This document shows, in pieces, positions 22,798-51,152 of a stretch of 64,000 nucleotides of DNA. The notes under the pieces are model-generated. The model did no database searches. It saw nothing but the letters and a program-made list of their open reading frames with translations, and was not told the origin of the DNA. The position numbers were made by a program, and so were the translations under genes. Each line of letters begins with the position of its first letter. The first letter of the stretch is position 1. The stretch is from assembly GCA_964187785.1 (NCBI GenBank), contig OZ076409.1, positions 46,254,001 through 46,318,000 of the forward strand. Direction: 5' to 3'. This DNA is from Amphiscolops sp. MND2022. Lineage: Eukaryota.

Positions 22798-22906
22798 ATC
22801 TATTTTCAGTTTTGAGACATCTGAGCTAACAATTCGAAAGAAAAACTTGCCCGAAAAAAAGAGGAACCATAAAAATTTTGACGTCAGTTTCAGACTAAAA
22901 TACAGC

Positions 22907-24870
22907 TGTCGCAGGCTGCCGCCTGCGATGGCACTAAGATCACGACAACAGCGGAAGGGCAAGAGACCGCGACCGGAACCTTACCAATCTACTGAGGAGA
23001 AAACATTTAAAATGCAAACTTCCATATTGTTCCGTTAATTACACTTGTTAATGTTGCTGACTCCATTTATATATATATATATACATATGTTTTGCTAGTA
23101 TTAGTCTGTTAGGGCCAATAACCAAAAGGCTCAAATGATATGTAGTTGTTTGCAAATTTGGAAATGCAGTACAACAACGCAATTGCAGTAATAAATAGAA
23201 GCAGCTAACGAGCGTAAAGGAAACGAGTTCAAGTAGACGTCACTCCAATTCCGGGGACGTCGCTTGAGCTTACTACGATTAGCCAATCACGTGCTGTAAT
23301 TCTTGCTGTACTATTGTTGTATTTGTTAATTGGCCGGTTAAGGCCGCCTGACGAAATTCCACTCTCACTGCTCACTACTTTGGTCAAACGGCCGGTTCCG
23401 GCCGTGAAGCAATAATGAAAAGGAACTAACTTATTACATCGGTACTTCATTAGTAATAATACAATTGTTCTTTCATGTAGTTTAAATGTTCATTGTTGAT
23501 AATATGAAGCTTTGTTTAGTATTTGGCCGAGTAAGGTCCATTGAACTAATATATATTGTTTCAACTGGTACTCTGGTCAAATGGCCGATTGTGGCCATTT
23601 CATGCATATTTGTGTTTTATTGTTCAGTTAACCAGATATTAACCCGGAACTAGCATGAATTCATCTCTGAAACAAATGAAGGTGCTTATGGTACTATATT
23701 ATCTGCGTGATCCAAGCATATGCAAAATAGACGAATAAGGCCATTTTCCTTCACTTCCCTATTGTGCTGTCTGTACTTACGGATTTAGGTCTATTTCGGT
23801 TTCAGCATGAAATGTATTTTCATGAATAGTGGATTCATACCACAGTCCTTATGTGCGGTTATACATTCCATTCTCAGTGTATTATATAATAAATCTTGTG
23901 TCGGCACGTGCCTCCACCTCACTTTGCGTGAGGTATGTAAACAAAGGTATTTGTTGACACTTTGATGTACATGCCTTAGTCGGCAGTTCGTTTGAAGCTA
24001 CTATTTTGACTATATGACCCATAAATGCCATTCCCTAGATGTCCCCGAAGATATGTGAATATCAGGGTTTTCATCAAGGAGCTAATGATCATATGATACT
24101 ATCAACCTAACTAGTTATGTAAGGAATGTGACTGTCATTCCCTAAAAGGTATAAATACTGTTATCCCATTGGGGAAATCATTAATTCCTTCCATTTTACT
24201 CTAGTTAAGTTTAATCTACAAACGGCACCGCTGTTATTTCCGTGTTCATTAATTCATTATTGATTCGGAACTGTTTCAATGCCAACCACTAGAAAGCAAA
24301 AGAAAGCTAGAAAGTCTAGAGGACTTGAGATGTTATCAGATATTGAAAATCTGGATATCATGTTAGGCGAAAACCATTTTGATAGAAATGAGAGAAATGA
24401 AAGTGTGAATAGTAATCAGGCCGGTAGGCCAGAAAGCTTATTTGGAGATGAACTTGGAGATGAGAATGAGAATGGGTTCCCAAACTCAAGAAATAATGGA
24501 CCAAGTCCAAATACCGAATTAGGCCATAATTCAATCAGAGAGTGTCCAAGCGTTGAGATCAATAGATTGTCAAGCGAGTTAAATTCACGTATATCTCGAG
24601 AGATGGACGAAATGATGAATAGTGTCAGTGTTCAGATTCAAAGAGCCATAAATGAGGCAATTAGTAGCCAAATTTTGCCTCAAATCCAAAATGTAGTTAT
24701 GGCCGGATCGGGACAATTGACCAAAGAGAGATGGAACGTTCCGGCCGAGAGACCGGAAGGATATTCTGAAGCACTGCAAAACTCAGAACTTAGGAACAAT
24801 TCTAAAAATAAACAGACCAACGACCGTCCCAAAGACGGAGTCACAAGCACGAACTCCCGTGCTTACGACA
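22907..24870 (+). repeat. 5' LTR of G3 (1964 bp)
   Basis: Near-identical to 37454-39419 (about 5 substitutions plus one TA-unit indel by eye); imperfect terminal inverted repeat TGTCGCAGGC / GCTTACGACA. Confidence 0.97.
24150..24182 (+). promoter_or_regulatory. Candidate LTR core promoter (TATA box and initiator)
   Basis: TATAAATA at 24150-24157 and TCATT at 24178, about 100 nt upstream of the gag ATG. Confidence 0.5.
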
Positions 24871-25997
24871 TGGTGACAGGAGAAAACGAATCTCCAATCG
24901 AAGTTCCTGAGTTTCTCACGGGACGAATCTCATCCAGAAACCATCTCGACAGGTCCTATGAGGATATTAACCTTGACACGACGATCCCAGCGCAAGAGAG
25001 AAATGCTCCGGCTGCTCAAACTGACCCTATTACTCGACTAGCAGATGTCTTGACAACGATGCAGAACAGGCCGACAGCCCAACAACTCACTATACGCCCA
25101 GTCAATTCAAACACAATGACTTTTGATGGCAAGAGTGAAAAATTCGAGCTGTTTGAGGACCTGTTCCACACGATGATCAAGATGCAACCGGAAATGACGG
25201 AACAGATGAAAATAAATCACTTCCACTCACTGCTGAGGAAGAATGCTCTCCAAACCTTCCGGAACATCAGCTCGAGCAATAGACAGACTTTAGAGGACGT
25301 ATTGGTAATATTCAGACGAAAATACGTCAAACCAGAATCACAGGCAACTGCCAAACATAAATGGCACCGTCTAGTTTTCGATCCTAACACGATGAAACTG
25401 CCAGATTTCCTTGAAGAATTAAATCAAGGGGCAGGAAAAGCATTCGGGGATCACGCACAGAAAATGATTGACAGTTTGCTCTACGCAAAACTGCCACCAA
25501 AACTGAAGCGGTCTGTAAACATGGCCAGACTCGAAAACGGCTCGTATGACGAAATAGTTGCTCATTTAGAGAGAGAGTTAGAACTAAATGCTCTTGAGGA
25601 ATCAGACGACCTACCAATGGCCACAATGACCTCCTCGACTACAAAACCTAAAACTCCTCTGTCCACAGGGCAACTGTCCGATATCACTTGCAATTACTGC
25701 AAGGAGAAGGGCCATATGGTCAAAGACTGTGAAAAATTGAAGAAGAAAAAGGAAAAAGATGCCCAACAAGGCAAACAAACTCAGAAAAAGACGTATCCGG
25801 AGTGTGGCACTTGTGGTAAAAAGAACCACCCGGAAGAAAGATGTTGGCAAGGTGCTGGTGCGCATCTCAAACCCAAACGCACCAGATCAGGTGACGCTAA
25901 TGACGGTAAACCCAATTCAAAGGCGCAGAAACCACAAAACAAACCAACATCTTCCAACTCACAGACCTCATCTTCCAATGATGAGTCAAAAAACTAA
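24279..25997 (+). CDS. gag: Gag of G3 (572 aa), starting inside the 5' LTR
   Basis: Capsid-like region (TFDGKSEKFELFE...) and two CCHC knuckles (CNYCKEKGHMVKDC, CGTCGKKNHPEERC); ends in the heptamer A AAA AAC followed by TAA. Confidence 0.93.
   Translation: MPTTRKQKKARKSRGLEMLSDIENLDIMLGENHFDRNERNESVNSNQAGRPESLFGDELGDENENGFPNSRNNGPSPNTELGHNSIRECPSVEINRLSSELNSRISREMDEMMNSVSVQIQRAINEAISSQILPQIQNVVMAGSGQLTKERWNVPAERPEGYSEALQNSELRNNSKNKQTNDRPKDGVTSTNSRAYDMVTGENESPIEVPEFLTGRISSRNHLDRSYEDINLDTTIPAQERNAPAAQTDPITRLADVLTTMQNRPTAQQLTIRPVNSNTMTFDGKSEKFELFEDLFHTMIKMQPEMTEQMKINHFHSLLRKNALQTFRNISSSNRQTLEDVLVIFRRKYVKPESQATAKHKWHRLVFDPNTMKLPDFLEELNQGAGKAFGDHAQKMIDSLLYAKLPPKLKRSVNMARLENGSYDEIVAHLERELELNALEESDDLPMATMTSSTTKPKTPLSTGQLSDITCNYCKEKGHMVKDCEKLKKKKEKDAQQGKQTQKKTYPECGTCGKKNHPEERCWQGAGAHLKPKRTRSGDANDGKPNSKAQKPQNKPTSSNSQTSSSNDESKN
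24871..24882 (+). promoter_or_regulatory. Primer binding site of G3 (tRNA-Leu-like)
   Basis: TGGTGACAGGAG abuts the LTR end; 11/12 match to the complement of a typical metazoan tRNA-Leu 3' end (TGGTGTCAGGAG), recalled from knowledge. Confidence 0.6.
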
Positions 25998-28900
25998 CTT
26001 CGCCACGACTCCAATACAACCAACTAATATCTGTCCGACAATACATCAGATCGGACCCTCCAACGCAAACTTTCCACCAATACAACCAACAATTGATGGG
26101 CTATCCCTCTGTTGTCTGGCAGCAGCAGATGGAAAAAGCTACCATTATTACTTACAATAATACCCATTTGTTCCAAAAACCAATTCCTGTATGGGATCCT
26201 GATTACACATCTGCTTTCAATAGCCGATTCAGGCCCATTCCCTTGGTAGACGATTACAACCCTACCTACATAGACCCCGATTATGGACGAGATCCCTATT
26301 GGGACACGGAACTCTACAACCAAGATCTGCTACAATTCCAATACGTCATTGATGATATCGAACTCTAAAATAAATCAGCCCATGAAAATCCTCCAATCAC
26401 CCACAACAAGAAAACTAGAGCATTGATTGAAACCTGGCAAATGAATGATGGCACAAGCCATCCGGTGTTCCCAAATCCTCTGGGGACCGAGAATACTGAA
26501 AACAGCGGTGAAATCACACCACAATCATTATTAGATGAAAAACAATTCCAAAATATACTCATCACCAGAGATGGTGAACCAGACTGTATACCCCTGTCAA
26601 CCAACATCAACCTCAAATGCAAGAAACGCATGCTTTATTTCCCAATGGACTTTGGGGAATTGACCATAGACGGACTTATCGACACTGGTGCATTATCCAG
26701 TGCAATCCCAGAGATGGACCTCCGGAAAATCAGACTCTTATCGCCACAATCAGTAATCCGGGAGGGTCCGCCTCCAAACTTCCAGATAATGGTCGCAAAT
26801 GGGCAACTAGAGACTCCCAAGAGTACAATAGAGCTCAAATTCGAAGTTGGTGACATAGAGTTCCATGAAATTTTTATAGTAATGGAACACCTAACAGGAC
26901 CGATTATAGGACTGATGTTTCTACAGAGAAACCATACAGTACTGGACATGAGACAAGGAATACTGAACTTTCCGTTCTTTTCAATGCAGCTTAAAACAGC
27001 TGATCATAAATACTCGAACGTGCTAGAGCCAATTCTAAACCCTACTGAAATAACCATGCCGCCAAACGACAGAGTCCTGATTAGGACCAATTCCTTATTA
27101 TACCCTGAAAACACCGTCACAGGAATTTTGCAACCGAGCGACCTTCTCCATGAAGAAGGCGACATCACATTCTGTCCAGCCTTGGTCACCTTGAATGACG
27201 GCAATATATTGATACCAGTGAATAACTTCACAGACCACCCTTACAAGCTCAAAAAGGGACTCCATATTGCTAGTTTTTCAGTTATGACGCCAGAACAAAT
27301 GAAATATGTCAAACCGGTAGACCCGGCATCAACCTGGCATTTGTTGCAAAACGACCAAGAGCAAGCAGCCCATTACGTCAGTAGCCTGATCAAGACGAAC
27401 AGAAATTCACAAAACCCCGAAAACTACTGGTTCCCAACTCCGGAAAATCCAGGGAATCCAGAAGAACACACTCCAATCCAGAAAAGAATCCTCCGCGAGC
27501 TACAAGCCCTACAGGACCTAGAATCCCTTGATCCCACGAAAGACGAGGAATCTAGGGAAAAATTCTTAAGAAATTTTGATTGGAAAGACTCCACCCTAAC
27601 CCTGGAAGAGAAAACCAAAATTGAAGAATTGCTAGTGGAATTTCACGACATTTTTGCGAGACACAGATTTGATATAGGCATGAATGAGGAATTCAAGGTG
27701 AAATTGACACCTAAGGACGATTCCCCAGCCTATAGCCAAAGCCTCCCTGCGCCAATAAACTTGAAAGAGGACATTTTAGTCGAATTAGCCATGCTCCACA
27801 AATATGGCATAATAACTACTTTACCGTTCTCGAAATACGCCAGCCCAATATTCGCCCAAAAGAAACCAAATGGGAAGCTACGACTTTTGGTTGACTTGAG
27901 GAAAATCAACAACCTTATCTCGGATGATTATATCAACAATAATCACCCTGTTAGCACCTTGGTTGATGCTGCCCAACACTTGGCAGGCAAAAAACTGTTC
28001 TGTAAATTAGACTGTTCGCAGGCATACCACTGCCTACCAATGGCCGACCAACGCTCAATTGAAATGTTGGCTTTCAATTTTGCCAGTCGTACATTCGCGT
28101 ACAGACGCTTGGCACAAGGCCTTAGTCGGTCACTATCCGCATTCTCGAGTTTCATGAGGGAATACCTCGACAAAGTCATTAAAGCGGATCAGTGCGCCCA
28201 GTATGTGGACGATATCGGCATCGCAGCCAATGATGTTGAACACCTCATAATGAACCTGAGAGCAACATTCAAATGCATTCAGGAAGCAGGCCTTAAGCTG
28301 ACAATGCACAAATGTCACTTTGGTGCAAAAGAAATTGATTTTCTCGGACGGACTATTACCCCGCAAGGCGTCAAACCTCAGAAACAGAACGTGCAAAACT
28401 TCCTGGAAAAGACTAAATTCCCAAAGTCGAAAAAGGCTTTGCAGCGCTACTTGGGATTCTTGAACTACTACAGAAATTATGTCCCAAGACTATCTGAACG
28501 CCTTGCTCCATTCTACAAGATGCTCAAAAGTGACGAAAAGGTCCTAGTATCGAAAGAATTAGTCCAACAATTCGAAGAAATCAACAAAGCACTTGACAAA
28601 TGTTGCGATTTGGCATTACAGCAACCCATTCCGAACAAACAAATCGCACTAATGACTGATGCAAGTTTTGGTGCAGCTGGATATGCGGTCTTAATAGAAG
28701 ACGATCCAAACCAGAAATTCACATCTCTCCGAAAATCCTACGCACCGGTGGCCTACGGATCAAAAACCTTCACCCCAGCCCAGATCAAAATGTCAATATA
28801 TGCCAAGGAATTTCTGGCAATTTACTTTGCATTCAAAGAATTTGGACATATATTCTGGGGTGCGCCCAAACCGGTCATTATCCTTACCGACAACAAAGCC

Positions 28901-31225
28901 GTCACGAGATTTTTCCAAACGAAAATAATACCCCCAGCCCTATGGAATGCATGCGATTATGTGATTCAGTTCAATTTTGTCATAGCGCATATTCCGGGAG
29001 CACAGAACACAGCAGCTGACTATTTGTCCCGATTGGAGGCAGATCCGAAGGATAAATTAGTCATGAAAATCCGTGAAGACGTGCAAACTTTACCCATTGA
29101 GATAAATGTTCAATCTGCGGGGGTATCACAGGAAGAACAAATATTCTATACGAATGATGATGACGAGACAGAGGAACAGTATTGGGCAAGAAAAGAAGCA
29201 ATCAGGAAAAATCCAATGACTGATGAGCCCACTGTTACCATAGAAACTCTGTCAACCAATTTGGTCAAACAACAACCAGATATCCAAGTCCGATTAAAGA
29301 AAACAAACCAGATAATCATCGAGCAGTCCAAAGATACAGTATTGCAACAATTGAAGGCAAAGCTCCTTCATGAAGACTATTCAGAAAACATACTGCAACA
29401 GGATGCCCGATATAGACACTACGCAAATAATCTGGAACGAATTGTACTCAAGGACGAAATCCTGACGAGGCAATATTTTGATGAAACAGGGAATGTTAAA
29501 TACCATCAAATTTTGCTACCACAACACCTACTTCGGGAATTGCTCCACTCCCTTCACGGGACAGCGCATAAACATCCCGGGATTTCAAAAATGTTGCAGG
29601 AAATCAGACAAAGGTATTACTACCCTAGCATGGCTAAACACGTCAAAAAGTGGGTAGAAGGGTGTGAACAATGTGCCAGAGACAAGAGAGTCCCTAACGC
29701 AACGATCACACCTGAGCTGCTCAACTTGCCCGAATGGGACCTTGGACCTGAAGACGCCATGCAGATTGACCTGTTACCGAATCTTCCCCCAAGTGGAGGG
29801 TATGAAAATGTCCTAACGGCAATCGACGTTTTCTCCAGATATTTATTCGCTTATCCCCTTACAGACGCATCAGCGATCAATGTGGCAAAAGCGCTCATTG
29901 ACATAATGACCAAGCACGCATATCTGCCAACGACTCTTATTACTGACAAGGGTACTGCATTCACTTCTACGATTATTGCGGAGGTTACGCAAATTTTGGG
30001 CATTACACTCAAATGTGCAACGACAAAGCACCCGCAAACAATTGGGAAATTAGAGCGGACCCATGTCTCATTAAAGACAAACCTCAAAATGGCATGTGGG
30101 GAATACCGCCGACAATGGCATAAATATCTGCCATTAGCAGTACTTAATCATAATACGAGTTATCATGCCAGTATCGGTTGTGAGCCAACGAGAGTATTCC
30201 ATGGCAGAATTCCCTACAACATCCTGGATCACAAGCTTGGAAATAATCCAAACGAAAAGATCAGCCCTACAACCGAATTTGCTGACAAATTCCAAAACCG
30301 GAAAAAAATCCTAATTGACAAAACGAAGCAGAACATTATGCAGTCGTATATCAAGTACAAAGAATATTACGACCGCAAAGCAAAAGCTGCTCCATTGAAA
30401 GAGAATGATTACTGTTTCGTCCTACAGCCGGAAGCGGATCATCAAGGATCAAAAATTCCATTCCGCGATTACCGTTGGGTTGGACCATTTGTAGTCCAAA
30501 AGGTTTTGCCAAATGAAAACTACATAATACGAAGAATCAATACGAACAAAACTCAAATTTTGCATCGCATTCGACTTAAAAAGTTTATTCCCAATCAACC
30601 GCTTGAGGACAATTTCCGAGAACAACGTCTGCAGCCAGACGAAGAAATTGTCATTCCGCAAGACGACTTATACGTCATAACGTGGGAAACAGACTTCGGC
30701 GAACAGCTAGTTACACGAGGCAACGAACCTATTCCGACTAGCTTGCCGAACGGCGAACGGCCGAGTACGGCAGAAAACACAAATGACGCAAACGAGAATG
30801 ACGTGGATTACATAATCACGCGAGAAGGATTAAACAACGACAACGCGGTACACAGTCGGAATGGCCGCTTAAGTCACGACGCAACGACAAGTAATGACGT
30901 CACCGAAGAAGCATCGAATGACGAACCTGATTGGCCGAACGAGGCCGGTTTACCGAAAGCTCACGAAACACATTCACCGAATACAGCAAATGACCTCAAA
31001 AAAGACAAAATTATTCCAGAAAGCCCAAAAGACAAGGAAATTTTCCCATATGAAAATTTGCGAACCGAAACTGATGCACAAAATTCTCCAAGAACGGGGG
31101 ATGATATTATCGTGCCCGAAATATCCGAAAACGATGCTAGAAATGAAAGCCTGAGCCCTAGAGGAGGGAAATATAATCTCAGGCCTAACCCTAACCCAAA
31201 CTACTCAGAAGACTTCAGATACTAA
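25988..31225 (+). CDS. pol: Pol of G3 (PR, dUTPase-like insert, RT, RNase H, integrase) in the -1 frame; one in-frame TAA at 26366-26368
   Basis: 1600-codon ORF 26423-31225 with LIDTGA (PR), YVDD (RT), MTDAS (RH), H..H/CEQC and IDLL/TDKG/LERTH (IN). The same frame is open back to the gag slippery site except for one TAA. Confidence 0.95.
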
Positions 31226-31459: not shown

Positions 31460-34400
31460 TTAGTTCTTAGAGGATCCCTGGACAAGTTTCTTGGAGGCGG
31501 ATGAGACAGTAGAACTACTGCTACCCATTCTTTTCCGTTGGGTCCGGGAAGGAAGCTTTACGGCAGAGTCATCCGGCACGGAAGAGGCAATTCCTTTCTC
31601 CAGACGAACAGACCGTGGGGGGGAAACAGCAGTGACGACCTTATAGGAGGCAAGAAGGCTCTTGTAGATTTTGGACCTCCCGAACTCATCCACAAAGGTC
31701 CATGGATCATAGTCAGGGGAGAAAGCGGAACGCTCGAAGGAAGAACTGAGAGCTGAAAACTTTTCTAAATTAGCATCAGAGCAACAATGTGGAATGGAAT
31801 CAGGCACGCAAGAAAGGTAACTCTGACAGGGCTCTATCAGGTCAGCAAAACGGCCTCGGTGTCCAGAAGTGTTAACACTCCCGAAAGATACTGGAGGATA
31901 TTGGGGACTTTGTCCTGTCAAACACAAGCAGCACAGCTTGAAGAGATGGAAAATGTGCTCATGAGTTTGAAAAAACTCGAGCTGCATCAGGAAGTCTATC
32001 AGGTCGGTGGAATTTTCCTTGAAATCGAAATCTGGAGGATAATTGACTCGCAGGTGATCTAACAAAGCCAAATACTCATCTCGACAGACGTTCTCATTCT
32101 CACTGGAAACCCAAGAGCGAAGCTGGAAGGTCGAGTACAACACCTCAAAGTGACGGAGTCCGACCTCACTTGGTCTCTTGAAGAGGACAAAAGGGTCAAA
32201 GGCGGCTAACCCCTTGATCACCTCGGAACTCAGGCCGGCTTGGTTGAGGACCTGCCTGATCAGGTACTGAATGAACTGTAGTCCCTCTTTGACGAAACTG
32301 CTGGTTGTTTCTGCAGCTGTCTTGTCAATGGCGGCCTTCTCGGACTTCTTGTTCAGATGAACAACATCGGCACACTGTTTGCTGGCAGTAGCTATCCGAT
32401 TTGTCAATCGGTGCCGGATAAGGAACTCTTCCTCGCTGATGAATTTTCCTTCGCTCACGTTGAAATTGAGGAGAAGGAACCACGAATTCTCGAGAGGGAT
32501 GGTTTCCGGCAAGTAGCATCTGGCACATAGCTTGGAGACGAAACGGCAGACTTCTCCACAGAGGAAAAATGACGCATCTCGTCGGCCTAGCAGATTGACA
32601 ACGAAACTGGAAACATCTGGAAAATACAACGGACAAGATCATGAAAGGAACAAAACGTTCACATGAACCCATACCAATATGCCTATTGTGCTAGTAGCCC
32701 AAGGAATCAAGGATCAAGGACCGTTCTGATAATGTCTTAAAGTACCGATATGGACATGTAGCGGTATACTCACAATCACTGATTATGCGTTGGAAGAGTT
32801 CCAACTTGACGACGAAGAAAGAGTCGCAGATAAGAGACCACTCGAAGCTCTGCACTTGATTGTGGAACCCCTGCATTCCTTGGTGTGGAGTATGTGACGT
32901 CAGGTACTGCCGGACTGCTTTCCAATGTTTCAGGAGTTCCCGGCAGAGGTTGGGTAAACTCGGTAAGTCCAGTTTGCAGGTATCAATGGCCTAAATGAAC
33001 CCGAATTGTCTTTTGTCCGAACCTACCCCCCTAACCTTTTACGCCTCATGTTTGAACTTAATATACTAACTCGTGCTAGTTCAGGGGATTGCAGGACCCA
33101 GTCTTCATCGGTAGCTGCTCCAAGTGAAACCATGAGGCACTTCAGAACAGAGAAGAAGTCTATTCTGCCAAACACACTGAAAGTGGGTTTGTGCATCATC
33201 TTCTGAGCTGCAGGTGCTCGAAGCGAAAGCAACTCTGGACAGCCCGAGGGAAGAAAGCATTGTAGTCGATAGTCCGAATCAGCTCCACTGGACATCCGGA
33301 ACAAGCGACTATATCGGCCTTGGTGGACACTACTGAGAGAAGTCGAGAGAGGGACCCCAACTCCCCAGTAAGATCAGAGGAAGGAAGCCCACTTCGGCAC
33401 ACGTAGATTCGGCAGAGGGTGTCGCCCTTCCAGAATTTGACAGACATGAGTCTGTTCACTCCCTGATCCTCAAACTCGATGGCAAAGTGCTGTGTGGTAG
33501 CAATCTGATTTGCTAAATCGTTCATTGCACAATTGAAAATATGCTGGAAGATGGCCTGAAAAGGAAAAGGAGAATTACGAAATGTGTGGAGGACTTTGGT
33601 TTCCCACGAGCAGTGCGCAACCCAATAGAGAACTTACCGAAATTCTTTCTTCGCCCCAATCGAAGTCGCAGTAGCTGGTCTGGTAATTGGTCAAAGAGCC
33701 TATTTGGGACCACAATTTGCGGAGCATTCCAATATCTCCAAGTTGCTGTATGAAGTTCCCAATGAGTTGAATCTGCGTCTTGGTTCTTGCTTCAGGGGTG
33801 ACGAATGTGGTGGTTGTTCCTTTTATGAAATCATCATAGAAAGGGAAGCGTTCTCCGATGTCCACCAGCTCAACGTGCATAAAGTGGCGCATCTCCTTAG
33901 CCAACTCAATCTCTGAGAGGATCTTCCCATTGCGGCCTCTCACTCGATGTTGCACCTTTCCGGACACGGGGTGGACACTTTTGAGGTGCTCGTAGCGCCA
34001 TCTTTGATCTCGTCGGAGGTGCTTCTCCGTCCTGTGGTGTCGCAGGATTTCCAAAGTGCCCTTCGTCTTCACGGAGATATTCTTTTTGCATAAATGGCAC
34101 CATACCATATACGGATTGTGAAGCGGATCTGCTGGTCCGGAAATGAACGAGCGCGTCCATCCGATTTTGGAGAAAAACTCCTCTTTCATAGGGACACCTC
34201 GAGTCTGCTTTCGTTGCTTCCGTCTTGGCGCTTTACCCGAACTCGAAACTAAAGGCGGGGCAGGAGAAGTTTGAGTCCGTAACTCGGAAAGAGTGGCATC
34301 AAGGCTTGACTGTTCTGCTGATTCGAAGCCTGCTTGGGAGGGATCATTTTGAGTAGTCCCGCAAGAAGTTGAAGCAGGTCTGAAAGGCTCCTTGAAGGCT

Positions 34401-35590
34401 TGTGAGATGAGAGCCATTTCTTCGGAACTATCTGTGTCATTGGAGGAGTCCAGCCCTCTGTCCTCTTGTCCTGAACTTGTTCCGACAGACGTATCAGTTC
34501 CTGACTCAGGAAAATTTTCAGAGCGTAGGCTGCCATCAGAATCACTATGAAGTCCAGGTCCGGGAGTTTGGGCTCTTGGCCTGATTCGGAAATGGTCAGT
34601 TCGAGAACTGGAAGTGACCGGCGCTCCGCGAACTGCCCCAATCACCATCTGTTCCATGGCAGTGAAGGACATCTTCAGGGTTTCATCTGTAAGAACCCTC
34701 AAAAGATGATACACTTGTGGCTCAGTAAAAGCCACTGTTCTATGGCCGAGAGGGAAATTGATGGTGGTAGCATCCTGATCAAAGTACTGTTTTAAAATGG
34801 CCCGGCTGCGACCGGAGAGCTCCCTGACGCCAGAATCTTGCCCTGCAGACGTTGATGTTGACGGACGCATGTTATCCGGACGATGAATAGGAGTGTCAAC
34901 TGACGACTCCCCTGCAGTTTCTGCCACATTTCCTACTGGCTGGAAACTGTATAGAGCTGGTCCACTTGCCTGGCTGGATGTATCACCGGCTTCCTCAGTC
35001 CCAGTCACGTCATCCAAATATACTACATCTGTGACTCCAGTCGGCAATTTAGGGGCATCACATACAGATGAACCTTCATCAGTCTCATGTTGAAGGAATG
35101 ATGCTGCTGACATGTTGGCAGAAGTTCCGCAAGTTGTCAACAATTCTGGCAATTCCGTCTGAGTGGAGGGAGCAATCGTGAGACCGGCTTCTAGCTGTGA
35201 TAAATCCAGCCCTGCAGATTCACTGGGCAAGTCCTTGGTTGGAGTGCTAGTTTGGAAGAGCAATGTAGAAGTTTGGGGTTCATTCCCAACAGTAGGCGAA
35301 CCTTCAGGGGCACTCTCTTCAACCTCCTGTTCCCCGATTTCAGAACTCTTGGCAATCTGTCTCTCTTCCTGTTCCTGGGCCCGTGCAAGAAGCAGAACTT
35401 TCTCATCAGCGTATGCCGTGACATCGAAATCACTATCAACACTGAAAGGAGAGGGAGTGACTGTATCCTGGGCTCCTTCTGTTACCGCTGCTGTTGACAT
35501 GACAATGGTGGTGGATGAAGTTGGAGAATACGGAGCAATTGGATCGGGACTAGACCTTGGCATAGTTATTGGAATAGGACGTCGGGGCAT
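31460..35590 (-). pseudogene. Antisense spliced accessory gene inside G3: ~1300-aa BED-zinc-finger, hAT-transposase-like protein; exons 35590-33638, 33555-33071, 32990-32675, 32616-31460; one frameshift (~33198) and one TAG (32693-32691)
   Basis: GT-AG introns of 82, 80 and 58 bp (GTAAGT..TTTCAG, GTTAGT..ATTTAG, GTATGG..TTCCAG) join the ORFs in matching phase. WCHLCKKNI...ILRHHRTEKH is a BED-like finger. Downstream segments resemble hAT transposase. Confidence 0.75.
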
Positions 35591-36753
35591 CTCGGTGAAA
35601 TTGTCTGAAGAAGTGGTGTTTCGAATCTGTGATTCGTCAATATTCTGGTTTTCTAAACAGAATGAGATGAAATTTGGCGGTGAGCTTCCTTGAAAAAAAT
35701 CCAATTTACCGCGTTAGAAAACTTCCGGAAGTGCTATGAAAATTCGAATGAAATGTGTTATCACGCATTTATTGATGGAAACAGGAAGCATTTTGTGAAC
35801 GAATTTAGCCCTGATCAAGTTAAATTTGAGTTCAAAAAAGAAACAAACCAACCTTCAGTTGAAGACATTCTGAGCTGGGACGAAACGGGAACTGCTCCAA
35901 TCGGATTGCCGCCACGAAGGAAATTGGCCGGACTCGGCTTGAAGGGGAGAAACAGAGATACTCTGAAGAGAAGACTGACTGGAGGGATTGGAGACAGAAA
36001 GGATAGTTTGACAATGAAGACTGACCGGATGAATATGGACGAGGAAATGCAATTAAAATAAAAGGAATTGGATTGGAATTCAAAATAAAGAATTGAAGAG
36101 TTGGAGTTCGTGGCTGAAGATTATTACCAGACTAATATTATGGATTATCTACATATTTATTCTGTACATGGAGTCTGCCAGCGAAGTGTACAATGGATTT
36201 TGTTATTTACAGCTTATTTAGTTAAAGGGCCGGTTATGGCCGTTTGCCCTGTTTTGTTTCGCCGTTTTGTCCAGTTACCCTAGTTACCCTTAGCTAGAAT
36301 TTTCGCCATCTTGAATTATTTAGATTTATTATTTTCGCCATTTTTATTATTTAATTTCACAATTTATCGAAGCTTGACGCTGATTGGTTGAAGCCATTTT
36401 GAAAGAATTCCGCGTCGCATGCTGTTAATTGCTATCAGGCAGACTGTTAATTACCCACTTGAAACGGGTGAAGATGATATTTACAACTCAAGCGTCGTTA
36501 ACACCTCTCAGAGTGATGGTGCTGATAGAGGGTAAACAGTGAGTTATCAAAGGATGCCGAATAATTATAAAATTCCATTCAGGAATGTTTACGTCGGATC
36601 AGGACGATTTACCAATAGCTCAACCGCCAAAAACGAATTGCCGGGAAAAGGCCCGACTTGGCCAAATTCTTGAACTGGTGAATTCATTCCACTTTGAAAC
36701 TTTAAGCAAACCAGTCAACTCCTCTGCTTAGCAAGATTGCGAAAAAACTAATA

Positions 36754-37542
36754 ATGCAAAGATATAACTTAACCAAGAAGCCCTTCGACTTTGAAGAAGA
36801 GGATTCAGAAAGTTCAACAAATTCGATAATCTACATATCCAGCGACAGTGAGGATGAGGCTTCAAGCGATTGGGACTCAGACTGGTCTACTGATACGGAG
36901 GCTATAATAGACAGGATTGAACGGGAAGTTAAAGCGACACCAATTCCTATTGCCGGACGGGGAATGACAATGGAAAGCTCAGATGACGAAAGGGCGGCAG
37001 GACCCAGCTACATTCAGTCTGTTCCGCCTTCTACCCCGAAATTGGGATTTGAGTACTTCAACAGGGAAATGTGTCTAGCGCCGTCCAAAAGGCAGAAGAA
37101 GACGAGGGTTGAGCTCTGCACTACTGTTTTGCCTGTTTTGGAATCTCCATTATCTCCTCCCGACCATGAGAGAGGACCAAGTATTGATACTCCTCCTGTA
37201 CAGTCGACTTCAGGGACTTTCTACGCCTCGTATCATGTGCAAAATATCAAGCCTTACCAGAACGTCAGTGAAAGTCTACACACGGGCTGTATGGTATGTG
37301 GTAAATCGAGAGAGCAGATAAAAGAGGAAAAGATCAACTGGTATATGGAGAGATCGACGCCCAAGAGTGAACCAGCCTATATCACCGCATTACGACGAGA
37401 AGCATACTCTAATGGTTTAAATGCAGGTAGTCTACTTTTCCTAACACCCGCAGTGTCGCAGGCTGCCGCCTGCGATGGCACTAAGATCACGACAACAGCG
37501 GAAGGGCAAGAGACCGCGACCGGAACCTTACCAATCTACTGA
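36754..37542 (+). CDS. Accessory ORF of G3, 262 aa, acidic N-terminus, unknown function; last ~29 codons lie in the 3' LTR
   Basis: ATG-initiated uninterrupted ORF with IIYISSDSEDE (SIM-like), PSKRQKKTR (NLS-like) and CMVC; AATAAA downstream at ~37739. Confidence 0.7.
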   Translation: MQRYNLTKKPFDFEEEDSESSTNSIIYISSDSEDEASSDWDSDWSTDTEAIIDRIEREVKATPIPIAGRGMTMESSDDERAAGPSYIQSVPPSTPKLGFEYFNREMCLAPSKRQKKTRVELCTTVLPVLESPLSPPDHERGPSIDTPPVQSTSGTFYASYHVQNIKPYQNVSESLHTGCMVCGKSREQIKEEKINWYMERSTPKSEPAYITALRREAYSNGLNAGSLLFLTPAVSQAAACDGTKITTTAEGQETATGTLPIY

Positions 37543-39419
37543 GGAGAAAACATTTAAAATGCAAACTTCCATATTGTTCCGTTAATTACACTTGTTAATG
37601 TTGCTGACTCCATTTATATATATATATATATACATATGTTTTGCTAGTATTAGTCTGTTAGGGCCAATAACCAAAAGGCTCAAATGATATGTAGTTGTTT
37701 GCAAATTTGGAAATGCAGTACAACAACGCAATTGCAGTAATAAATAGAAGCAGCTAACGAGCGTAAAGGAAACGAGTTCAAGTAGACGTCACTCCAATTC
37801 CGGGGACGTCGCTTGAGCTTACTACGATTAGCCAATCACGTGCTGTAATTCTTGCTGTACTATTGTTGTATTTGTTAATTGGCCGGTTAAGGCCGCCTGA
37901 CGAAATTCCACTCTCACTGCTCACTACTTTGGTCAAACGGCCGGTTCCGGCCGTGAAGCAATAATGAAAAGGAACTAACTTATTACATCGGTACTTCATT
38001 AGTAATAATACAATTGTTCTTTCATGTAGTTTAAATGTTCATTGTTGATAATATGAAGCTTTGTTTAGTATTTGGCCGAGTAAGGTCCATTGAACTAATA
38101 TATATTGTTTCAACTGGTACTCTGGTCAAATGGCCGATTGTGGCCATTTCATGCATATTTGTGTTTTATTGTTCAGTTAACCAGATATTAACCCGGAACT
38201 AGCATGAATTCATCTCTGAAACAAATGAAGGTGCTTATGGTACTATATTATCTGCGTGATCCAAGCATATGCAAAATAGACGAATAAGGCCATTTTCCTT
38301 CACTTCCCTATTGTGCTGTCTGTACTTACGGATTTAGGCCTATTTCGGTTTCAGCATGAAATGTATTTTCATGAATAGTGGATTCATACCACAGTCCTTA
38401 TGTGCGGTTATACATTCCATTCTCAGTGTGTTATATAATAAATCTTGTGTCGGCACGTGCCTCCACCTCACTTTGCGTGAGGTATGTAAACAAAGGTATT
38501 TGTTGACACTTTGATGTACATGCCTTAGTCGGCAGTTCGTTTGAAGCTACTATTTTGACTATATGACCCATAAATGCCATTCCCTAGATGTCCCCGAAGA
38601 TATGTGAATATCAGGGTTTTCATCATGGAGCTAATGATCATATGATACTATCAACCTAACTAGTTATGTAAGGAATGTGACTGTCATTCCCTAAAAGGTA
38701 TAAATACTGTTATCCCATTGGGGAAATCATTAATTCCTTCCATTTTACTCTAGTTAAGTTTAATCTACAAACGGCACCGCTGTTATTTCCGTGTTGATTA
38801 ATTCATTATTGATTCGGAACTGTTTCAATGCCAACCACTAGAAAGCAAAAGAAAGCTAGAAAGTCTAGAGGACTTGAGATGTTATCAGATATTGAAAATC
38901 TGGATATCATGTTAGGCGAAAACCATTTTGATAGAAATGAGAGAAATGAAAGTGTGAATAGTAATCAGGCCGGTAGGCCAGAAAGCTTATTTGGAGATGA
39001 ACTTGGAGATGAGAATGAGAATGGGTTCCCAAACTCAAGAAATAATGGACCAAGTCCAAATACCGAATTAGGCCATAATTCAATCAGAGAGTGTCCAAGC
39101 GTTGAGATCAATAGATTGTCAAGCGAGTTAAATTCACGTATATCTCGAGAGATGGACGAAATGATGAATAGTGTCAGTGTTCAGATTCAAAGAGCCATAA
39201 ATGAGGCAATTAGTAGCCAAATTTTGCCTCAAATCCAAAATGTAGTTATGGCCGGATCGGGACAATTGACCAAAGAGAGATGGAACGTTCCGGCCGAGAG
39301 ACCGGAAGGATATTCCGAAGCACTGCAAAACTCAGAACTTAGGAACAATTCTAAAAATAAACAGACCAACGACCGTCCCAAAGACGGAGTCACAAGCACG
39401 AACTCCCGTGCTTACGACA
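37454..39419 (+). repeat. 3' LTR of G3 (1966 bp); contains a copy of the gag N-terminal ORF (38828-39448) that terminates in flanking DNA
   Basis: Direct repeat of 22907-24870, followed by the TSD ACAGC. Confidence 0.97.
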
Positions 39420-40100
39420 ACAGCCTACGAAACTCGTTTATAATTTAAGAAACACAGGACTCCGTATTTGGTCTCGGTTCTGAGATCTTTACAAAACCAC
39501 TTTAAACAAAAACATGGTTTCAATATAACTATCGGTTCCGCGAAAGTTGCCTGATAACGTTGAAATTCTTCCACATGTCTCGACAATCGAGGAAAAAAAA
39601 TCTTTCAGGAAAATGATTGAAACTTTTAGTATTTGTAAACGCCTATTTCGCGGTGAAAGAATTTCGCAAAATAACGAAATTGACAGTAATAAACGCAAAC
39701 CATGCTGCCGCGTCGGTTAGTGTCTTTTTGGGTCATTTTCAAGTGTTCCTGGTAGTGAAATTTAAAATTAGCGAAAACCCTTATAAGGCTCAAGCAAAAC
39801 GTTTCTCAGTATTTTTATATCGTTAGATTTGCGTAGGTTTCAGCGGCAACATGGATGGTCTGCGATGAAAAAGTTTCCAGAAAGTTTCCAGGCTAAGCTC
39901 GAAGCCTCAAAACTCAGCTTAAAAACCAACACTTTGCCAATAACAGAAAACTCATTTTCAACCTCATATTAATTAGACTAACATATGAAAATAGACTCGT
40001 TTGCCTGGTTTTCTGAACAATTCTTTAAATTTGTAATATTGGATTCAGACCTCATATCAATGACACATTCAATTATACACTGTATAAATATAATTCCAAA

Positions 40101-41770: not shown

Positions 41771-44261
41771 GTACAAAACCTTGGTCAAATTGTATTCACC
41801 ATTCAATGATCTACTGGAGGAATTTAATCTCCTACCTAGATCCTACTTGGTAGTGAAAAATTACTTCATTTTGTTGTGGAAGGTGGAAAAATCTATGTTG
41901 AAGGTGATATTAGTTTTTCAACAGCAGGTGTCAATACGCGCTCTGCCTCTTTTACATCATTTCAGGTTCCAAATCGAGTGAAGCTTAAATCCAAAAATGT
42001 TTTTATGTCAGAGCCCCACGACTAGACAACCACCCCATCTCTGCTGGAATTATTGACTTCTCATGGCCCCTTCAGAAATGCAAGAAAGCATAGCACAGTA
42101 TCTTGAAAGAAAAAGGAAAAAGTTTCGATGAAAACGTGTCCTGTACTTTTTATTTGAAATTTTTGTCCTACTTGTAGGTGTTAAGTAATACATTTCTAAA
42201 AACCAATTTTATTTCATACTTACAATTTTGATTGTATGCCTTTCCTTATTTTGGAATTGAGTCTTCCTAATCTAATCTAAAGAACATCGTGCACGTATTT
42301 CGTTAGAAAGGAAATGACTTCAGTGACCCGGAAGACACATTAAGTTTCCTGTCAATCAAAACAAACTGTTCAAAGAAACTTCTCTAGTTTTCTAACGAAT
42401 AGGGGGATACTGTTTTTCCTTTGCCCAATTGTTTTCAGCAATGTCTCATTGATTGTTTCGTTTCATCTTCTGGCCTGTCTGCAAACTTCCTCGCAACTTC
42501 CTCAAATTTTAAACATCTTATCACTAAACGAGGTAAGCTGTTTCGAAAGCATAGACTACATAGGATTTTTGGCTCATGGTCGTTATAGCGAACATTTTCC
42601 GAAAAATATCATTTTTTAGACTTTATAGTTTTGAACACGAAAATGGAGTTACAAATCGATGCAGTGTTTATAGTTATATGTTTCTCAACTGAAATTTTGA
42701 GTGTGATTATTCACTGGTTTTTCAGGCAATTTCATTGCACATTTTTAAGGATCTCAAAAAATTAGTGGATGATCATTTTGGTGTTGCGCAAACGTATAGG
42801 TCAACGTTGAGTGTGAAAAATCTGCAGAATTTTGGCAAAATATTTTTTCTAAGCAGCCTGTTTTGATTTTCAACGTTCTGTTTCTCCAGGGCAATTTTTG
42901 TTGAAATGTGGAAAAAAAGGAAATAACGAGAAATTAGTTACCTACTAATCGAAACAGAAAGAAGGCAGCTATGTAAATAAGAACCATTTCATACCTTCAT
43001 GATTTTCACATTGACGCTTTTTTGAGCCAATTTTTCCAAAAATTCTTAATAAAACTTCATCAGGAAGTAGACACTTTGAGTTCGACATTTTGCTTTTTCC
43101 ATTCGGAAAAGGATTTCAACAAGCGGGGTACAGCCTAGTCAACGTCCCGCTAAAAAGAGTGAAACAAAAATAGTTGTTCCAAAAATTTTCAAACTCAATG
43201 CCGAAAAAAAACCCAGAAGGGAGAACCCATAGGACTAAAAAGGCTTTTCTTGCCAGAAATAAAAAAACCAACACTTTTTCCGTTTCGTCACCAGAAACAT
43301 CAAAGAATCAAAGCAAGAATCTTTTTGTGAAATGAAATTTTCCCAAAAATTTGCATAATGCCAACAAAACCCAAAATTCTCCGAGCTTGAAAAGTCTTTC
43401 ATTATCCAAAAATATCAAAAAACCGAAAAATGAAAACTTGGATTTTTTCGAATAGTCGCACAATTCCGAAAACAACAATCAAATTCCATTTAATCCGAAT
43501 AAGTATGTCAAAATACGAATTCAGCATTTTGGCAGTCACTTCGACCGGATTGAAAAAAAAACAAAAAACATGGGAGGAAGAGAGCTTTGCGCAAGGCTAA
43601 ATAGATAAGCGAAAGGGTAGAAATCATAGGAGAATAAGTATCTTACAGCGAATCAATTTTCCTCAGAAAGCTATTCAATTTTCGGAATATGAACGGCCCA
43701 TTTCTCCGTAATGGAACTTTTTCAAGACACAACTGACATGAAAATTCGCAGGGTCTTTTGTTCTACCGATTCATAGAACTTTCACGCTCACTGGCTTATG
43801 TTAAAGACCTTAATTTGACTAAAACAAAACTTACCCTCTCAAAATTATCATTTTTCAAATTTTCGTCGAAGAAAAAACTATCGAAAAACTTTCCGACAAC
43901 TAAAAGTTACACCATGGTGAATTCCAACCTTGTGTATATTTTTTTCAAAAAGTAGAACGCTTCGATAATTGCGCTGAAATAAAACGCTTCGAATAAAACA
44001 ATTGAGAGGGATATCACACTCTCAGACGGGAAGATTTTAAGTGTTAGAAAAGATGTCTATCAAGGCGGGATATATTCAATCTTTTCTTCTCAAAATTATG
44101 TAATCCAGTGAATCATACATTTAAAAGTCAATGTGTTTCAGTTAGTTCATATAGTAGTTTGATGAGTCATTTATGACAGGCTCCACCCCCCCCACGCTGC
44201 AAGAAGGAGAGAGGGGCAAGGCGACTATGTGGTGAAGAAAAATGATTGAGCGAGCGAACCG

Positions 44262-47200
44262 TTACGGGGCGAAAACAGGGGAAAGCGAGACGGCCGGGCG
44301 TTCGAAAGTTCCGTATGCTGTTTTAACAGTGCACACTCGGGTAACTCCATCTTTCCCAGGGTGGGTGGCTGTTATTTTTCCCAGTGGCCATATGCCTCGA
44401 GGAGTGAAGTCTTGCAGCAACCATACAATATCGTTAACTTTGAGAGGGGACGTTGCTTTGTTCCATTTCTGTCGTCGATCCAAAGTTGGCAAGTACTCCT
44501 TCAAGAATCGTTTCCAAAAGTGGTTTGAAACTTTTTGGACTTCTTTCCAGGAATTGAAAAAGAGCGGTTTATCTGTTTCTTCAAAAACAATCGGTGGTAT
44601 GTTTGCGAATGGGCGGTGTAGAAGGAAGTGGTTTGGTGTTAGAGGTTCTTCATTTTCTGGCTGGTCGTTGACATGGGTGAGTGGTCGCGAATTCAACATC
44701 AGCTCGGTTTCGGCTAAAATTGTCGTGAAAAATTTGAGCGTCAGTTTTTGGGATCCAAGGATAATCAGAAGTGTTCGTTTTGCGGTCTGGATCATCCTTT
44801 CCCAGGGACCACCAAAATGAGGCGCAGAAGGAGGATTAAAATCCCAACAGATTTCTTCTGCGTGAGGAATTTTATTCTGAACAGCGGCGATCCCATCGTT
44901 CAGACAGGCTTGCAGTTCACGGCGCGCTCCGACAAAGTTCTTGCCGTTATCGGAACGCAGTAGACGCGGTTGTCCTCGTCTGGCAATGAAGCGGCGGAAT
45001 GCATTCAGGAAGCTGTCAGTAGTCATGCTAGAGCAGGATTCGAGGTGGCAGGCGCGGGTGACGAGACAGTTGAAAATGATGCCGTAATGCTTTTCAGTCT
45101 TACGGCCGTTGACAATGAAGAAGGGACCGAAGAGGTCAACTCCAGTTTTTTTGAACAGGAACGGTGATTTCGGGCTGGGAAAGCGTAGTTGTGGTAACGG
45201 AGCCATTTCTGGTTGGACGTTTTCAGCACGAAAACGGCGGCAGATAAAACAGCGATAATTGATTGAGCGCAACGCGGCTCGGATACCGAGAACTTTGAAT
45301 CGTTGTTCGACAAAAGCTTTAACGAATTCGGGTCCGGCATGACAACAGATTTCATGAGCGTGCTTCAAGTAGAGTTTTGTTATGGGCTCCTTCGATTCAA
45401 GGAGTACAGGAGTACGAATTGCTTGAGCGAGCGGTGCGTATACGAGACGGCCATGAGAGCGCAAGAGGGAATCTTGATCGATGAACGGTCGGAAAGGTAT
45501 GAGTTTGTCGCGCGAGGTTGGATCCAGATTTCGACGCAGCTGATGAAAAGTAGAGGCAAACGACAAAGATTGCGATTGTTTGATAAGCGCATGATTGGCT
45601 TTGCGAAAGTCTTCAGAGATCAGTGTTGAAGGTGAAGTCGGTGAACGAAGGCGACGGACGAAACGAAAAACGTTGGCGACGACTTTTAGTAGGTTGCTCC
45701 AGGTGGAAAAACGTTCAGTGTCGAAAAGGACTGACTTTTGATCAATAACGATGGCTGTACAGGTTGTTTGCGGTCGTTTGGGCCATTTTTCGGCCGATTC
45801 ATTGAGAAAGGATGGACCTTCGATCCATTTGGCGGGAATTTCGTCGGGTCTGAGACCACGGGTACCGTGATCTGCAGGGTTTTGTTTGGTTGGAACGTAT
45901 TTCCAGTCCAGCGGGTCAGAATGTAGAGTAATTTCATTGACTCTGTGGGCGACAAAACTCTTGAGTTTGTTCTGTCGCTGTATCCAGTCCAAAACGACAC
46001 AACTGTCGGTCCAGAACTTCACAACTGGGAAGGAGCAAGAGAAGGCGTTACGGACGAATCGGAGCAGACGGACTCCAAGAACGGCGGCTTCAAGTTCCAG
46101 TTTTGGAATGCTTTTTTGCTTAATCGGGGAGACACGGCTCTTTCCGATGACGAAAGTTTGTTGAGCTGACGTATGCGAAAAAGTTGGTTGACGAGCATAA
46201 ATGACAGCGGCGAAAGCGGAATTGGATGCGTCTGTAAAGACGTGGAGTTCCACGGTTGTGGCTGATCGGAAAGCACGGCGAGGTACGGAGACAGTCGGCA
46301 TTGCGCGGTAACAATCAGTGAGTTTGTTCACGGAGGTTTGGATGTGATCGGGAATGGCCTGGTCCCAAGTTTGACCAAGTTTCCAGAGAGATTGAAGGAT
46401 TATCTTGAATTGGATCACTAGCGGTGATAGTAAACCGATTGGGTCGAATGTTGATGAAACTAGGCTGAACAGTTGTCTGAGCGTGGCCGGATTATCAACG
46501 GACTTAGGTGGCGGTGCGGTGTAAGAGTCAGTGCGAAGACACCACGTTTGACCCAAAACCTTGGTTTCGGATGCAGATTTTTCACGGTCTTCGGTGGGAA
46601 TGGAGGACAGGGCATCACTGTTATTGGAGATAAACTTTGTAAGACGGAAACCTCCACGCTGGAGGACGGTACGTAGATCGTTTGTCAATTGACGGGCGGC
46701 GGCTGGTGTTGAAAAGGATTGGATGAAGTTATCCATGTAAAAATTGTTAAGCACGGCTTGCAATACGTCGGGGAATTGGGAAGCGAGATTTTGGGCGCAA
46801 CGGCGGAGTACGAATATGGCGCAAAACGGAGAGCAGTTGGCACCAAAGATGAGGCGGATGTATTGGTATTGGACTACGTAATTATCGGATATCCAAAGGA
46901 AGCGGAGGGCTGATTGATCTTCAGGGCGGATTGCGATTTGCATGAACATTCCTTCAATGTCGGCTAGGACACCAACGGCGTGTTCACGGAAATGGAGGAT
47001 GAGTTCGAGCAGGTTTGCAAGAAGATCAGGTCCTGCGAGAAGATTGGAGTTCAAAGATTTATTTTTGTACTTCGAGGCAGCATTTGCTACACGACGGACT
47101 TTCCCGGGTTTGTTAGGGTTTTCTACGGGATGAGTTGGTAAGTACCAAATTTTTTCAGGCGGCGGATTCTGCATTACAACGGGCGTAACGTACTGTTTCT

Positions 47201-50200: not shown

Positions 50201-50293
50201 CAGTTGAGATGCTAGATAATTGGATGAGTTCGTGAATTTGATGTCGTGCAGCTTGAATTGATTCTGCAGGGTCTGCTGTTTCGGGTTGATCAT
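44262..50293 (-). pseudogene. gag-pol: Bel/Pao gag-pol polyprotein of B2, broken by a stop at 48281-48283 and a frameshift near 47700
   Basis: KLPPIQIPKFDGD gag motif, triple Cys/His knuckles, ALIDFGS protease, RT (ADIEGMFMQI; YMDN instead of YMDD), RH (VFTDAS), IN (SDNGKNF, PWERMI). Confidence 0.92.
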
Positions 50294-51054
50294 CTTCGTT
50301 GTTCTGTGGTTAGTTGTAGAAAGAAAACAGCACACGGAACTTGCTTTATCCGTTCGTAAACGCGTGAATGGCGAACACACCTTTGAATCTAAGAGAAACT
50401 ATCTCGGAGCGCTAGTTTTTTTGGGTGTTAGCGGAACAGAGACGAAGCGTGCGAACCGTAATTCGATCACAAAGACGCTAGCGAGAGCCGAAAAAGGAAT
50501 TGAAGATCTGGACGAATCAGGACGCACCTAGACCTGAAAGACCAGCAGTGTATGCTGTGGTAGAGCTACGGCGACGGACGCAACTTTTTGGTTCCTACCG
50601 ACTTTATGAGAATGTGACTATCTACGATATTGACTTTACACTCTAAGATACTTCAAGTAAACTTTCTTGCCTAGGGGAAGACTTAGTTTGTTATTTCCAG
50701 AAGTTTCCTTTCTGAGACAACCACTTGAAACTATATCTCCTAATCAGAGAAGTGAGGAACGAAGGTCAAGAAAAAAACGCAAATATTGTGCTTTTTGTCG
50801 AGGAAAGCTGAGAAAAAGGTTTACAAAAACTACCCAAGCACTCTCCTTAGTGCAGCAAGGGTTAGGGTGAAAAGAGTTTTTTGGGAGTTGTCATTCGGCG
50901 TAGATCCCATTAGTCAGCAGAAAGGGTCTTTAGTAGAAAACTGTAGGCGTCAAAAACTCGGATCGTAAAAAAGTGGCATCAAATCGTGTTCAGGATTCTG
51001 GCAAAAAGTCGGTAGAGAGCGTTCATAACCACTAGTCGTTGCAAAAAGCAGTCT

Positions 51055-51152
51055 TGAAAAACACTTCGTAGAAGGGGCCTTGAAAAAAAAGGCTTCGTAG
51101 AAGGGGCCTCGAAAAAAAGGCTTCGGAGAAGGGGTCTTGTAGAAAAAAAGGT
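51055..51152. repeat. ~28-29-bp tandem repeat x3 in the B2 leader
   Basis: AAAAAAGGCTTCG(T/G)AGAAGGGG(C/T)CT(T/C)G units. Confidence 0.8.

Follow-up and report, generated by a model that had tools for sequence, protein, structure and literature searches.

The accessory ORF and its host element

The accessory ORF is carried at the 3' end of a young Ty3/Gypsy LTR retrotransposon of 16.5 kb, within the 64,000-nucleotide stretch of DNA that was analysed as a whole and is referred to here as the window. The features of the element are as follows.

22902..22906 (left) and 39420-39424 (right), no strand: target-site duplication ACAGC, 5 bp
22907..24870, plus strand: 5' LTR, 1964 nt, TG..CA ends
24279..25997, plus strand: gag, 572 aa, starting inside the 5' LTR and reading through the primer-binding site
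24871..24882, plus strand: primer-binding-site-like sequence TGGTGACAGGAG, abutting the end of the 5' LTR
26441..31225, plus strand: pol, with protease, RT, RNase H and integrase, in Ty3/Gypsy order by Pfam
31460..35713, minus strand: antisense intron-bearing gene, GT-AG intron at 33637-33556
36331..36387, plus strand: candidate internal promoter block, with an inverted CCAAT box at its end (ATTGG, 36383-36387)
36733..36747, plus strand: leader motif, in-frame KIAKK just before the ATG, with an acceptor-like AG at 36731
36754..37542, plus strand: accessory ORF, 262 aa, pI 4.8, intact, N-terminal two thirds mostly disordered
37424..37453, plus strand: place of the polypurine tract, coding, pyrimidine-rich and without a purine run
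37454..39419, plus strand: 3' LTR, 1966 nt, TG..CA ends

An alignment of the two LTRs has 5 mismatched and 2 gapped positions. The order of the pol domains, the TG..CA LTRs, the short target duplication and the primer-binding site after the 5' LTR are those of a Ty3/Gypsy element, and the best PDB match of pol is the Ty3 Gag-Pol (E 1.8e-46). A polypurine tract before the 3' LTR is missing, which makes the element atypical, and the family assignment was kept. No tRNA genes were found within the 64-kb window. In Pfam, gag matched DUF1759 above the cut-off and zf-CCHC below it. An A-AAA-AAC heptamer, which we take to be a slippery site, lies at the end of gag (25988-25994). The pol frame after gag contains one in-frame stop near 26.37 kb, ahead of an ORF of 1594 aa, and given this stop the window copy of the element may be defective. 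The 5' LTR holds the last 89 nt of the accessory ORF at its start and ~197 codons of gag at its end. With gag starting ~590 nt into the LTR, an ORF for the N-terminal part of Gag is found in the 3' LTR and would be in any solo LTR as well; in the 3' LTR this frame (38828-39448, 206 aa) extends into the flank.

From the sequence alone, an intact 262-aa ORF had been described here, with IIYISSDSEDE, an acidic tract containing Trp, a basic patch and a CxxC. The ORF is indeed intact, and IIYISSDSEDE (residues 25-35), SSDWDSDWSTD (38-47), PSKRQKKTR (110-118) and CMVC (179-182) are all present. Its end had been placed inside the 3' LTR, and the LTR start at 37454 splits codon V234 (G|TG), so that 89 nt of the ORF including the stop codon are LTR. 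The ORF had also been said to occupy the env position. This holds for the position alone, 5.5 kb beyond pol and behind the antisense gene. The ORF is not env, since the protein contains no transmembrane or signal segment; its N-terminus is acidic, and its maximal 19-residue hydropathy is 1.18, while the threshold for a transmembrane segment is ~1.6. Furthermore, no env family was matched in Pfam.

Relatives, LTR junction and antisense neighbour

A single-sequence search with the accessory protein returned relatives in 170 clusters (E<=1e-3), clustering at 50% gave 235 representatives and a profile search gave 303 relatives; the matches listed from the single-sequence and profile searches were all unnamed and without a Pfam domain. 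The 369 proteins collected include 210 fragments or extended forms, which were dropped before counting, and 159 distinct full-length relatives (235-300 aa, covering the profile), which were used in the counts and comprise 110 close (at least 45% identity to the query) and 49 distant (~25-35%) sequences. Lack of conservation across copies had been named beforehand as grounds for abandoning the sequence-only reading; the identity of these 159 relatives extends down to 25%. In many subfamilies with the ORF, a 90% cluster contains 40 to 136 members. In metagenomes the protein occurred at one locus, and no relatives were found in the viral contigs or prokaryote genomes searched. Judged by its sequence, the protein belongs to a family without a described counterpart, encoded by a separate gene of a large Ty3/Gypsy clade.

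For one relative, L001, the DNA was also compared (tblastn, 28% identity). Outside the LTR edge the window and L001 use the same codon at only 15 of 64 identical residues, some of these 64 identities being chance alignment, and the pattern is one of selection at the protein level, the synonymous sites being saturated. The LTR edge itself behaves differently. The first bases of the 3' LTR encode VSQAAACDG, followed by an ORF tail of 28-31 residues, and at VSQAAAC the window and L001 agree in 7 of 9 codons. Among 203 sequences, the residue whose codon supplies the first TG of the LTR is V in 180 and L in 23, and never I. The invariance of VSQAAAC thus appears to be largely a DNA-level constraint, and C240 within it could therefore not be counted as a zinc ligand. 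VSQAAAC was located in 150 full-length relatives, and in 144 of these the ORF stops 28-31 residues past it; a GTLP-like C-terminal end is present in 135/159, so the overlap between ORF and LTR is old.

These features of the junction are what would be expected if the frame had no function and were kept by the DNA constraints there or by recent copying. However, the DNA constraint spans ~9 of 262 codons and synonymous sites are saturated elsewhere, the length and the Cys/His positions persist down to 25% identity, and the longest antisense frame that overlaps the accessory ORF is just 68 aa. A functionless frame is hardly credible on these grounds, and the accessory ORF almost certainly encodes a real protein.

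No polypurine tract was found before the 3' LTR in the window or in L001 (1159-1188), with 6 of 15 positions being purines in each. With both LTR ends coding and the tract missing, the priming of plus-strand DNA in this element calls for an explanation. Directly upstream of the element lies a second, degraded Gypsy element (16651-22797, with repeats at 16651-17067 and 22381-22797) with the primer-binding-site-like sequence TGGCGCAG; its last ORF (21999-22460) likewise extends into its 3' repeat.

The antisense gene between pol and the accessory ORF encodes a protein with a conserved WCxxC...H...H zinc-finger-like region and has a family of 209 related clusters; no Pfam or PDB match was found for it. 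To us the protein recalls a BED finger with a hAT-like C-terminus, and the idea of a hAT-transposase origin was dropped, being without Pfam or PDB support. A nested DNA transposon was also rejected as an explanation of the region from pol to the ORF, as only 9-nt chance inverted matches were found and as the family of the antisense gene itself goes with the element. Among 120 listed antisense relatives, 16, picked by eye and not systematically, lie on contigs whose size equals that of an accessory ORF relative's contig, including one contig of 14,233 bp and one clade-B member (clade B is defined below), which suggests that the two genes travel together. The window copy of the antisense gene shows an apparent frame change near 33.2 kb, either a frameshift or an unrecognised intron. 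In its protein (33629-35590, minus strand), many relatives have KVRF or KVRW at residues ~185-195 where the window copy has VVYLDD, and the window copy carries RTVAF within a well conserved block at residues ~283-288; both presumably fit the RVxF docking pattern of phosphatase-1.

The candidate promoter block is common to the window and L001 with a score of 44, a marginal result in that none of 300 shuffles reached 44 and the best reached 43. Two copies of TTTTCGCCAT, which we take to resemble YY1 or E2F sites, lie upstream of the CCAAT box (36296-36345). Among predictions that extend upstream of the ATG, the leader contains KIAK in 6 of 10 close relatives and IAKK in 4 of 4 members of clade B. 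For the acceptor-like AG of 36731, which might serve a spliced env-like mRNA, a pattern search found no splice donor in the LTR or gag, and L001 does not have the AG at this position. The leader and the CCAAT block are most simply explained by an internal promoter, and a CCAAT-type promoter probably lies between the accessory ORF and the divergent antisense gene.

LTR retrotransposons with additional ORFs downstream of pol, before the 3' LTR, are already known. Plant Ty3/Gypsy elements (Retand/Grande) carry antisense extra ORFs with an internal promoter of their own, for example gene23 of Grande (PMC7264820; PMC11963269), bdelloid elements encode ORF3 enzymes between pol and the 3' LTR (PMC5408684), and Drosophila elements have env and sORF2 (PMC13486581). 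The element in the window is like such Ty3/Gypsy elements in its extra genes between pol and the 3' LTR, its long region there, its antisense gene and its internal promoter, here a candidate. It differs in that a sense ORF is paired divergently with a spliced antisense gene, the LTR contains both the end of the ORF and the start of gag, and a polypurine tract is lacking. In contrast to env and FAST-like sORF2, the accessory ORF is without a signal peptide or transmembrane segment, and neither the ORF nor 24 relatives matched TRP28, GDSL, DEDDy or env above the Pfam cut-off. By these sequence comparisons, the accessory protein belongs to none of the families compared.

The SIM-like motif and the other protein segments

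We divided the accessory protein into the following segments.

36826..36858, plus strand: phospho-SIM-like motif I25-I26-Y27-I28 + SSDSEDE, with CK2-type sites S30 and S32
36865..36894, plus strand: acidic W tract, not conserved outside the close clade
37081..37107, plus strand: basic patch PSKRQKKTR, NLS pattern not conserved
37117..37299, plus strand: candidate single zinc site C122...H161...C179-x2-C182
37144..37161, plus strand: SPLSPP, proline-directed phosphosite cluster (SPxSP at 131-135)
37309..37425, plus strand: helical hairpin 186-201 / 208-224, the sole confidently predicted fold, pLDDT above 90

The sequence-only reading rested on a SIM pattern, and IIYI-SSDSEDE does match the published consensus of (V/I/L)(V/I/L)x(V/I/L) followed by Ser/acidic residues (PMC3174244). 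It had also named conservation of the motif among family members as a check, and the motif passes it. Using a search pattern of the core followed by S, [SDG] and [DES] within the first 80 residues, we found the motif in 96 of 110 close relatives, compared with 0.9 expected from shuffles, and in 22 of 22 distant relatives outside clade B; the distant sequences first grouped as A numbered 25, and the three misses proved to be clade B. Since 13 of the 22 distant carriers are near-copies of one lineage, a fairer count is that of representatives at 70% identity outside clade B, in which 18 of 19 carry the motif, including all 8 distant lineages. L001 also carries it. In these representatives a mean of 6.7 of the 8 residues after the core are D/E/S, and position x of the core is Y in 13, C in 2, and N, W or I in one each, while the three other core positions stay V/I/L/P. 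Residues flanking the motif turn over across the distant lineages while the core pattern persists. As a control, the SIM-like word VVYLDD in a disordered part of the antisense protein was matched in 13 of 120 of its relatives.

In a quick tree of 33 rows, the SIM is present in 18 rows and has been lost in clade B, which comprises 13 rows with a support of 100. Instead, 12 of the 13 clade-B rows carry a reverse acidic-psi-x-psi-psi motif (DSDIEVI type) ~20 residues downstream of the SIM place, and none of the 33 rows carries both. A count of 21/24 for the reverse motif is partly circular, as that group had been chosen by a similar pattern, and the tree count was used. The reverse motif fits a compensation for the lost SIM; the switch is a single event on the tree and therefore not an independent replication. 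The site of the reverse motif aligns with a segment of the query that is predicted as helix. Residues 24-36 around the SIM have pLDDT values below 50 and no predicted secondary structure, low confidence being only a proxy for disorder. A SUMOylation-type site of the psi-K-x-E form, IKEE, is kept in 83/110 close and 10/49 distant relatives.

The acidic N-terminus might instead be an activation domain or the site of some other partner, the function of the protein then lying in its Cys/His-helical domain. Acidic tracts with Trp resemble activation domains. The acidic W tract that had been pointed out from sequence is real in the close relatives, 109 of 110 of which keep W40, and has disappeared from the distant ones. 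Clade B, which no longer has the SIM, still has the C-terminal domain and the SPxSP cluster, as do all other clades. SIM-like words are also often non-binding, only one of seven in ICP0 being strongly identified as functional (PMC3174244). In contrast, the fixed hydrophobics, the free x and the SS-acidic tail persist across 8 distant lineages and L001, and the reverse pattern is present in clade B. Weighing these, we consider it unlikely that the motif is something other than a SIM, and from its pattern and conservation it can reasonably be expected to bind SUMO.

The basic patch had been proposed as an NLS, and this did not hold up in the family. The classical monopartite pattern K[KR]x[KR] occurs at that place in 32/110 close and 0/49 distant full-length relatives, and clade B has a mean of 0.8 K/R there. 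The CxxC noted earlier is present as CMVC (179-182) and turned out to be just part of a larger Cys/His-helical domain, the most conserved part of the protein. C122, H161, C179 and C182 are all four kept in 146/159 full-length relatives and form a candidate zinc site, which is based on conservation, the structure model being confident at the helical hairpin alone. The SPxSP cluster is similarly conserved (S134 154/159, P132 151/159, P135 154/159).

In the case of the fold, a first AlphaFold model had a pLDDT of 50, and a second, built with 84 sequences, had a mean pLDDT of 64 and was confident only at 186-224; a predicted homodimer with 2 Zn scored 0.02. No Pfam family was found above the cut-off for the accessory ORF or 24 relatives, and a Rad50 zinc-hook match in one of 25 family members (E 0.023) was not accepted. 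A PDB profile search with the accessory protein returned Gfi-1 only (E 5.4), the ESM Atlas gave no usable match for the whole protein or residues 100-262, and Foldseek against PDB and BFVD found nothing at E<=0.001, the best hits (Z 4.5) being generic helix pairs for a model with a pLDDT of only 64. A RING finger, which has 8 zinc ligands, is absent, as the conserved Cys/His residues are just C122, H161, C179, C182 and C240, and Pfam gave no RING match.

Possible roles of the accessory protein

Considering the SIM-like motif and its conservation, we tentatively favour a SUMO-docking regulator that raises the transcription of its own element, and we give this reading as a whole a little less than an even chance. 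Of the three chained odds behind it, that of a real protein and that of SUMO binding have been given above, and the last, that the role is to raise transcription of the element, is somewhat better than even. The gene would be transcribed from the internal CCAAT-type promoter, with a transcript ending in the 3' LTR, and its product would be a small, mostly disordered, phospho-regulated adaptor. By its pattern and conservation, the N-terminal hydrophobic core with its Ser/acidic tail would dock SUMO after phosphorylation by CK2, and the Cys/His-helical C-terminal domain would bind a second partner. Engaging SUMOylated chromatin or silencing factors in this way would lead to more transcription of the element, either by recruitment of activators, as by HCMV IE2, or by competition with SIM-bearing silencing effectors. 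What the sequences establish is the gene, the purifying selection on it and the conservation of its motifs; the expression route, the SUMO and zinc binding, the nuclear location and the direction of effect of the protein are inferred.

The most plausible functional likeness is with HCMV IE2, HSV-1 ICP0 and DAXX-type phospho-SIMs, where a disordered region likewise contains a hydrophobic core and, after it, CK2-type serines and acidic residues. In the IE2 SIM (core CIVI), CK2 phosphorylation of the adjacent serines is reported to give an 8-fold gain in affinity (bioRxiv 10.1101/655282), and the ICP0 SIM IVISDS contributes to the derepression of quiescent genomes (PMC3174244). By this analogy the accessory protein most plausibly works like IE2 or ICP0, though it is a member of neither family: no sequence or fold homology to them was found, it has no RING and no recognised DNA-binding domain, position x of its SIM is mostly Tyr where IE2 and ICP0 have Val, and its gene belongs to a retrotransposon without env. 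An N-terminal SIM together with a C-terminal Cys/His domain is also present in SUMO-targeted ubiquitin ligases (RNF4, Slx5/8, ICP0). The accessory protein differs from them in having four conserved candidate ligands (five with the DNA-constrained C240), one SIM and no RING.

VANC of the Arabidopsis VANDAL DNA transposons is also a transposon-encoded accessory protein, and it is the best-documented protein anti-silencing factor (PMC6719617; PMC12859917). However, VANC comes from a plant DNA transposon and works on DNA methylation by way of a tandem DNA motif; no similarity to the accessory protein was found, and no link of VANC to SUMO is given in the accessible parts of these sources (PMC6719617; PMC12859917). 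As the accessory protein has no recognisable RING or DNA-binding domain, the mechanisms of ICP0 and VANC cannot be transferred to it directly. The lack of a conserved NLS also counts against a SUMO-docking transcription regulator, as does the point that a broad SUMO antagonist would derepress all transposons, whereas the counter-defences described for transposons are narrow (PMC6719617).

The antisense zinc-finger protein could supply the specificity for which the accessory protein has no recognisable RING or DNA-binding domain. The two genes would then form a cassette with a shared internal promoter, in which the antisense protein recognises the DNA of the element and the phospho-SIM adaptor intercepts SUMO-dependent (piRNA-type) silencing. 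We regard this extension as doubtful. If true, it would be a protein-based, family-specific counter-silencing at the SUMO step, with a SIM function rebuilt once in reverse orientation during evolution.

SUMO docking might also serve a late step of the life cycle, nuclear entry or target choice, in which the protein would hold the particle or the pre-integration complex to SUMOylated chromatin or to nuclear pores. Conservation of the SIM is equally compatible with this, and the integrase has no chromodomain match in Pfam, so that a targeting module could sit elsewhere. A role in nuclear import of the complex has in fact been proposed for accessory ORFs (PMC7264820). The accessory protein, however, has its own start codon and a candidate promoter, outside Gag-Pol, and late-step docking seems to us rather improbable.

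The direction of the effect could also be reversed, the protein recruiting SUMO-dependent repressors to its own family and so limiting copy number. The motifs do not tell the direction of effect, the IE2 SIM supports auto-repression as well as transactivation (bioRxiv 10.1101/655282), and self-control strategies have been described for transposons (PMC6719617). On the other hand, many ORF-bearing subfamilies are large, as given by their cluster sizes above, and the LTRs differ at only 7 of ~1965 positions, which fits a successful, recently active family. Self-restraint seems distinctly improbable.

Few protein counter-defences encoded by transposons have been documented, the clearest being VANC (PMC6719617). 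In piRNA-guided silencing, SUMO and effectors with SIMs make up a hub, which in Drosophila is a scaffold for the silencing of transposons by Piwi (PMC8490990). Herpesviral regulators use a motif of this kind to exploit SUMO. A SIM-like motif kept to 25% identity would offer a direct way to find out whether transposons of animals counter silencing at the SUMO step. Among the papers that the literature searches listed, none describes a retrotransposon accessory protein with a SIM, while Repbase, supplementary repeat libraries or subscription papers may hold the family, and the accessory family is not described in the accessible parts of PMC9911081, PMC11410931, PMC12859917 and PMC13534243. Apart from any link to SUMO, the protein family is itself undescribed and has a candidate zinc site that would be new.

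The spliceosomal introns of the window and its BEL/Pao and Gypsy content suggest an animal host, perhaps an acoel. The remainder of the window contains several further features. Two related elements, ~71-81% alike and by their motifs presumably of BEL/Pao type, lie at 43978-51447 and 53600-56800 (minus strand), the first with long intact ORFs of 1102 and 670 aa. Host-gene exons with a signal peptide, which we take to look like a papain-family propeptide, are found at 14544-15307 (minus strand). A near-identical direct repeat with internal inverted arms (57658-59158 and 62376-63876, spaced by 4718 nt) is possibly another LTR pair or a local duplication.
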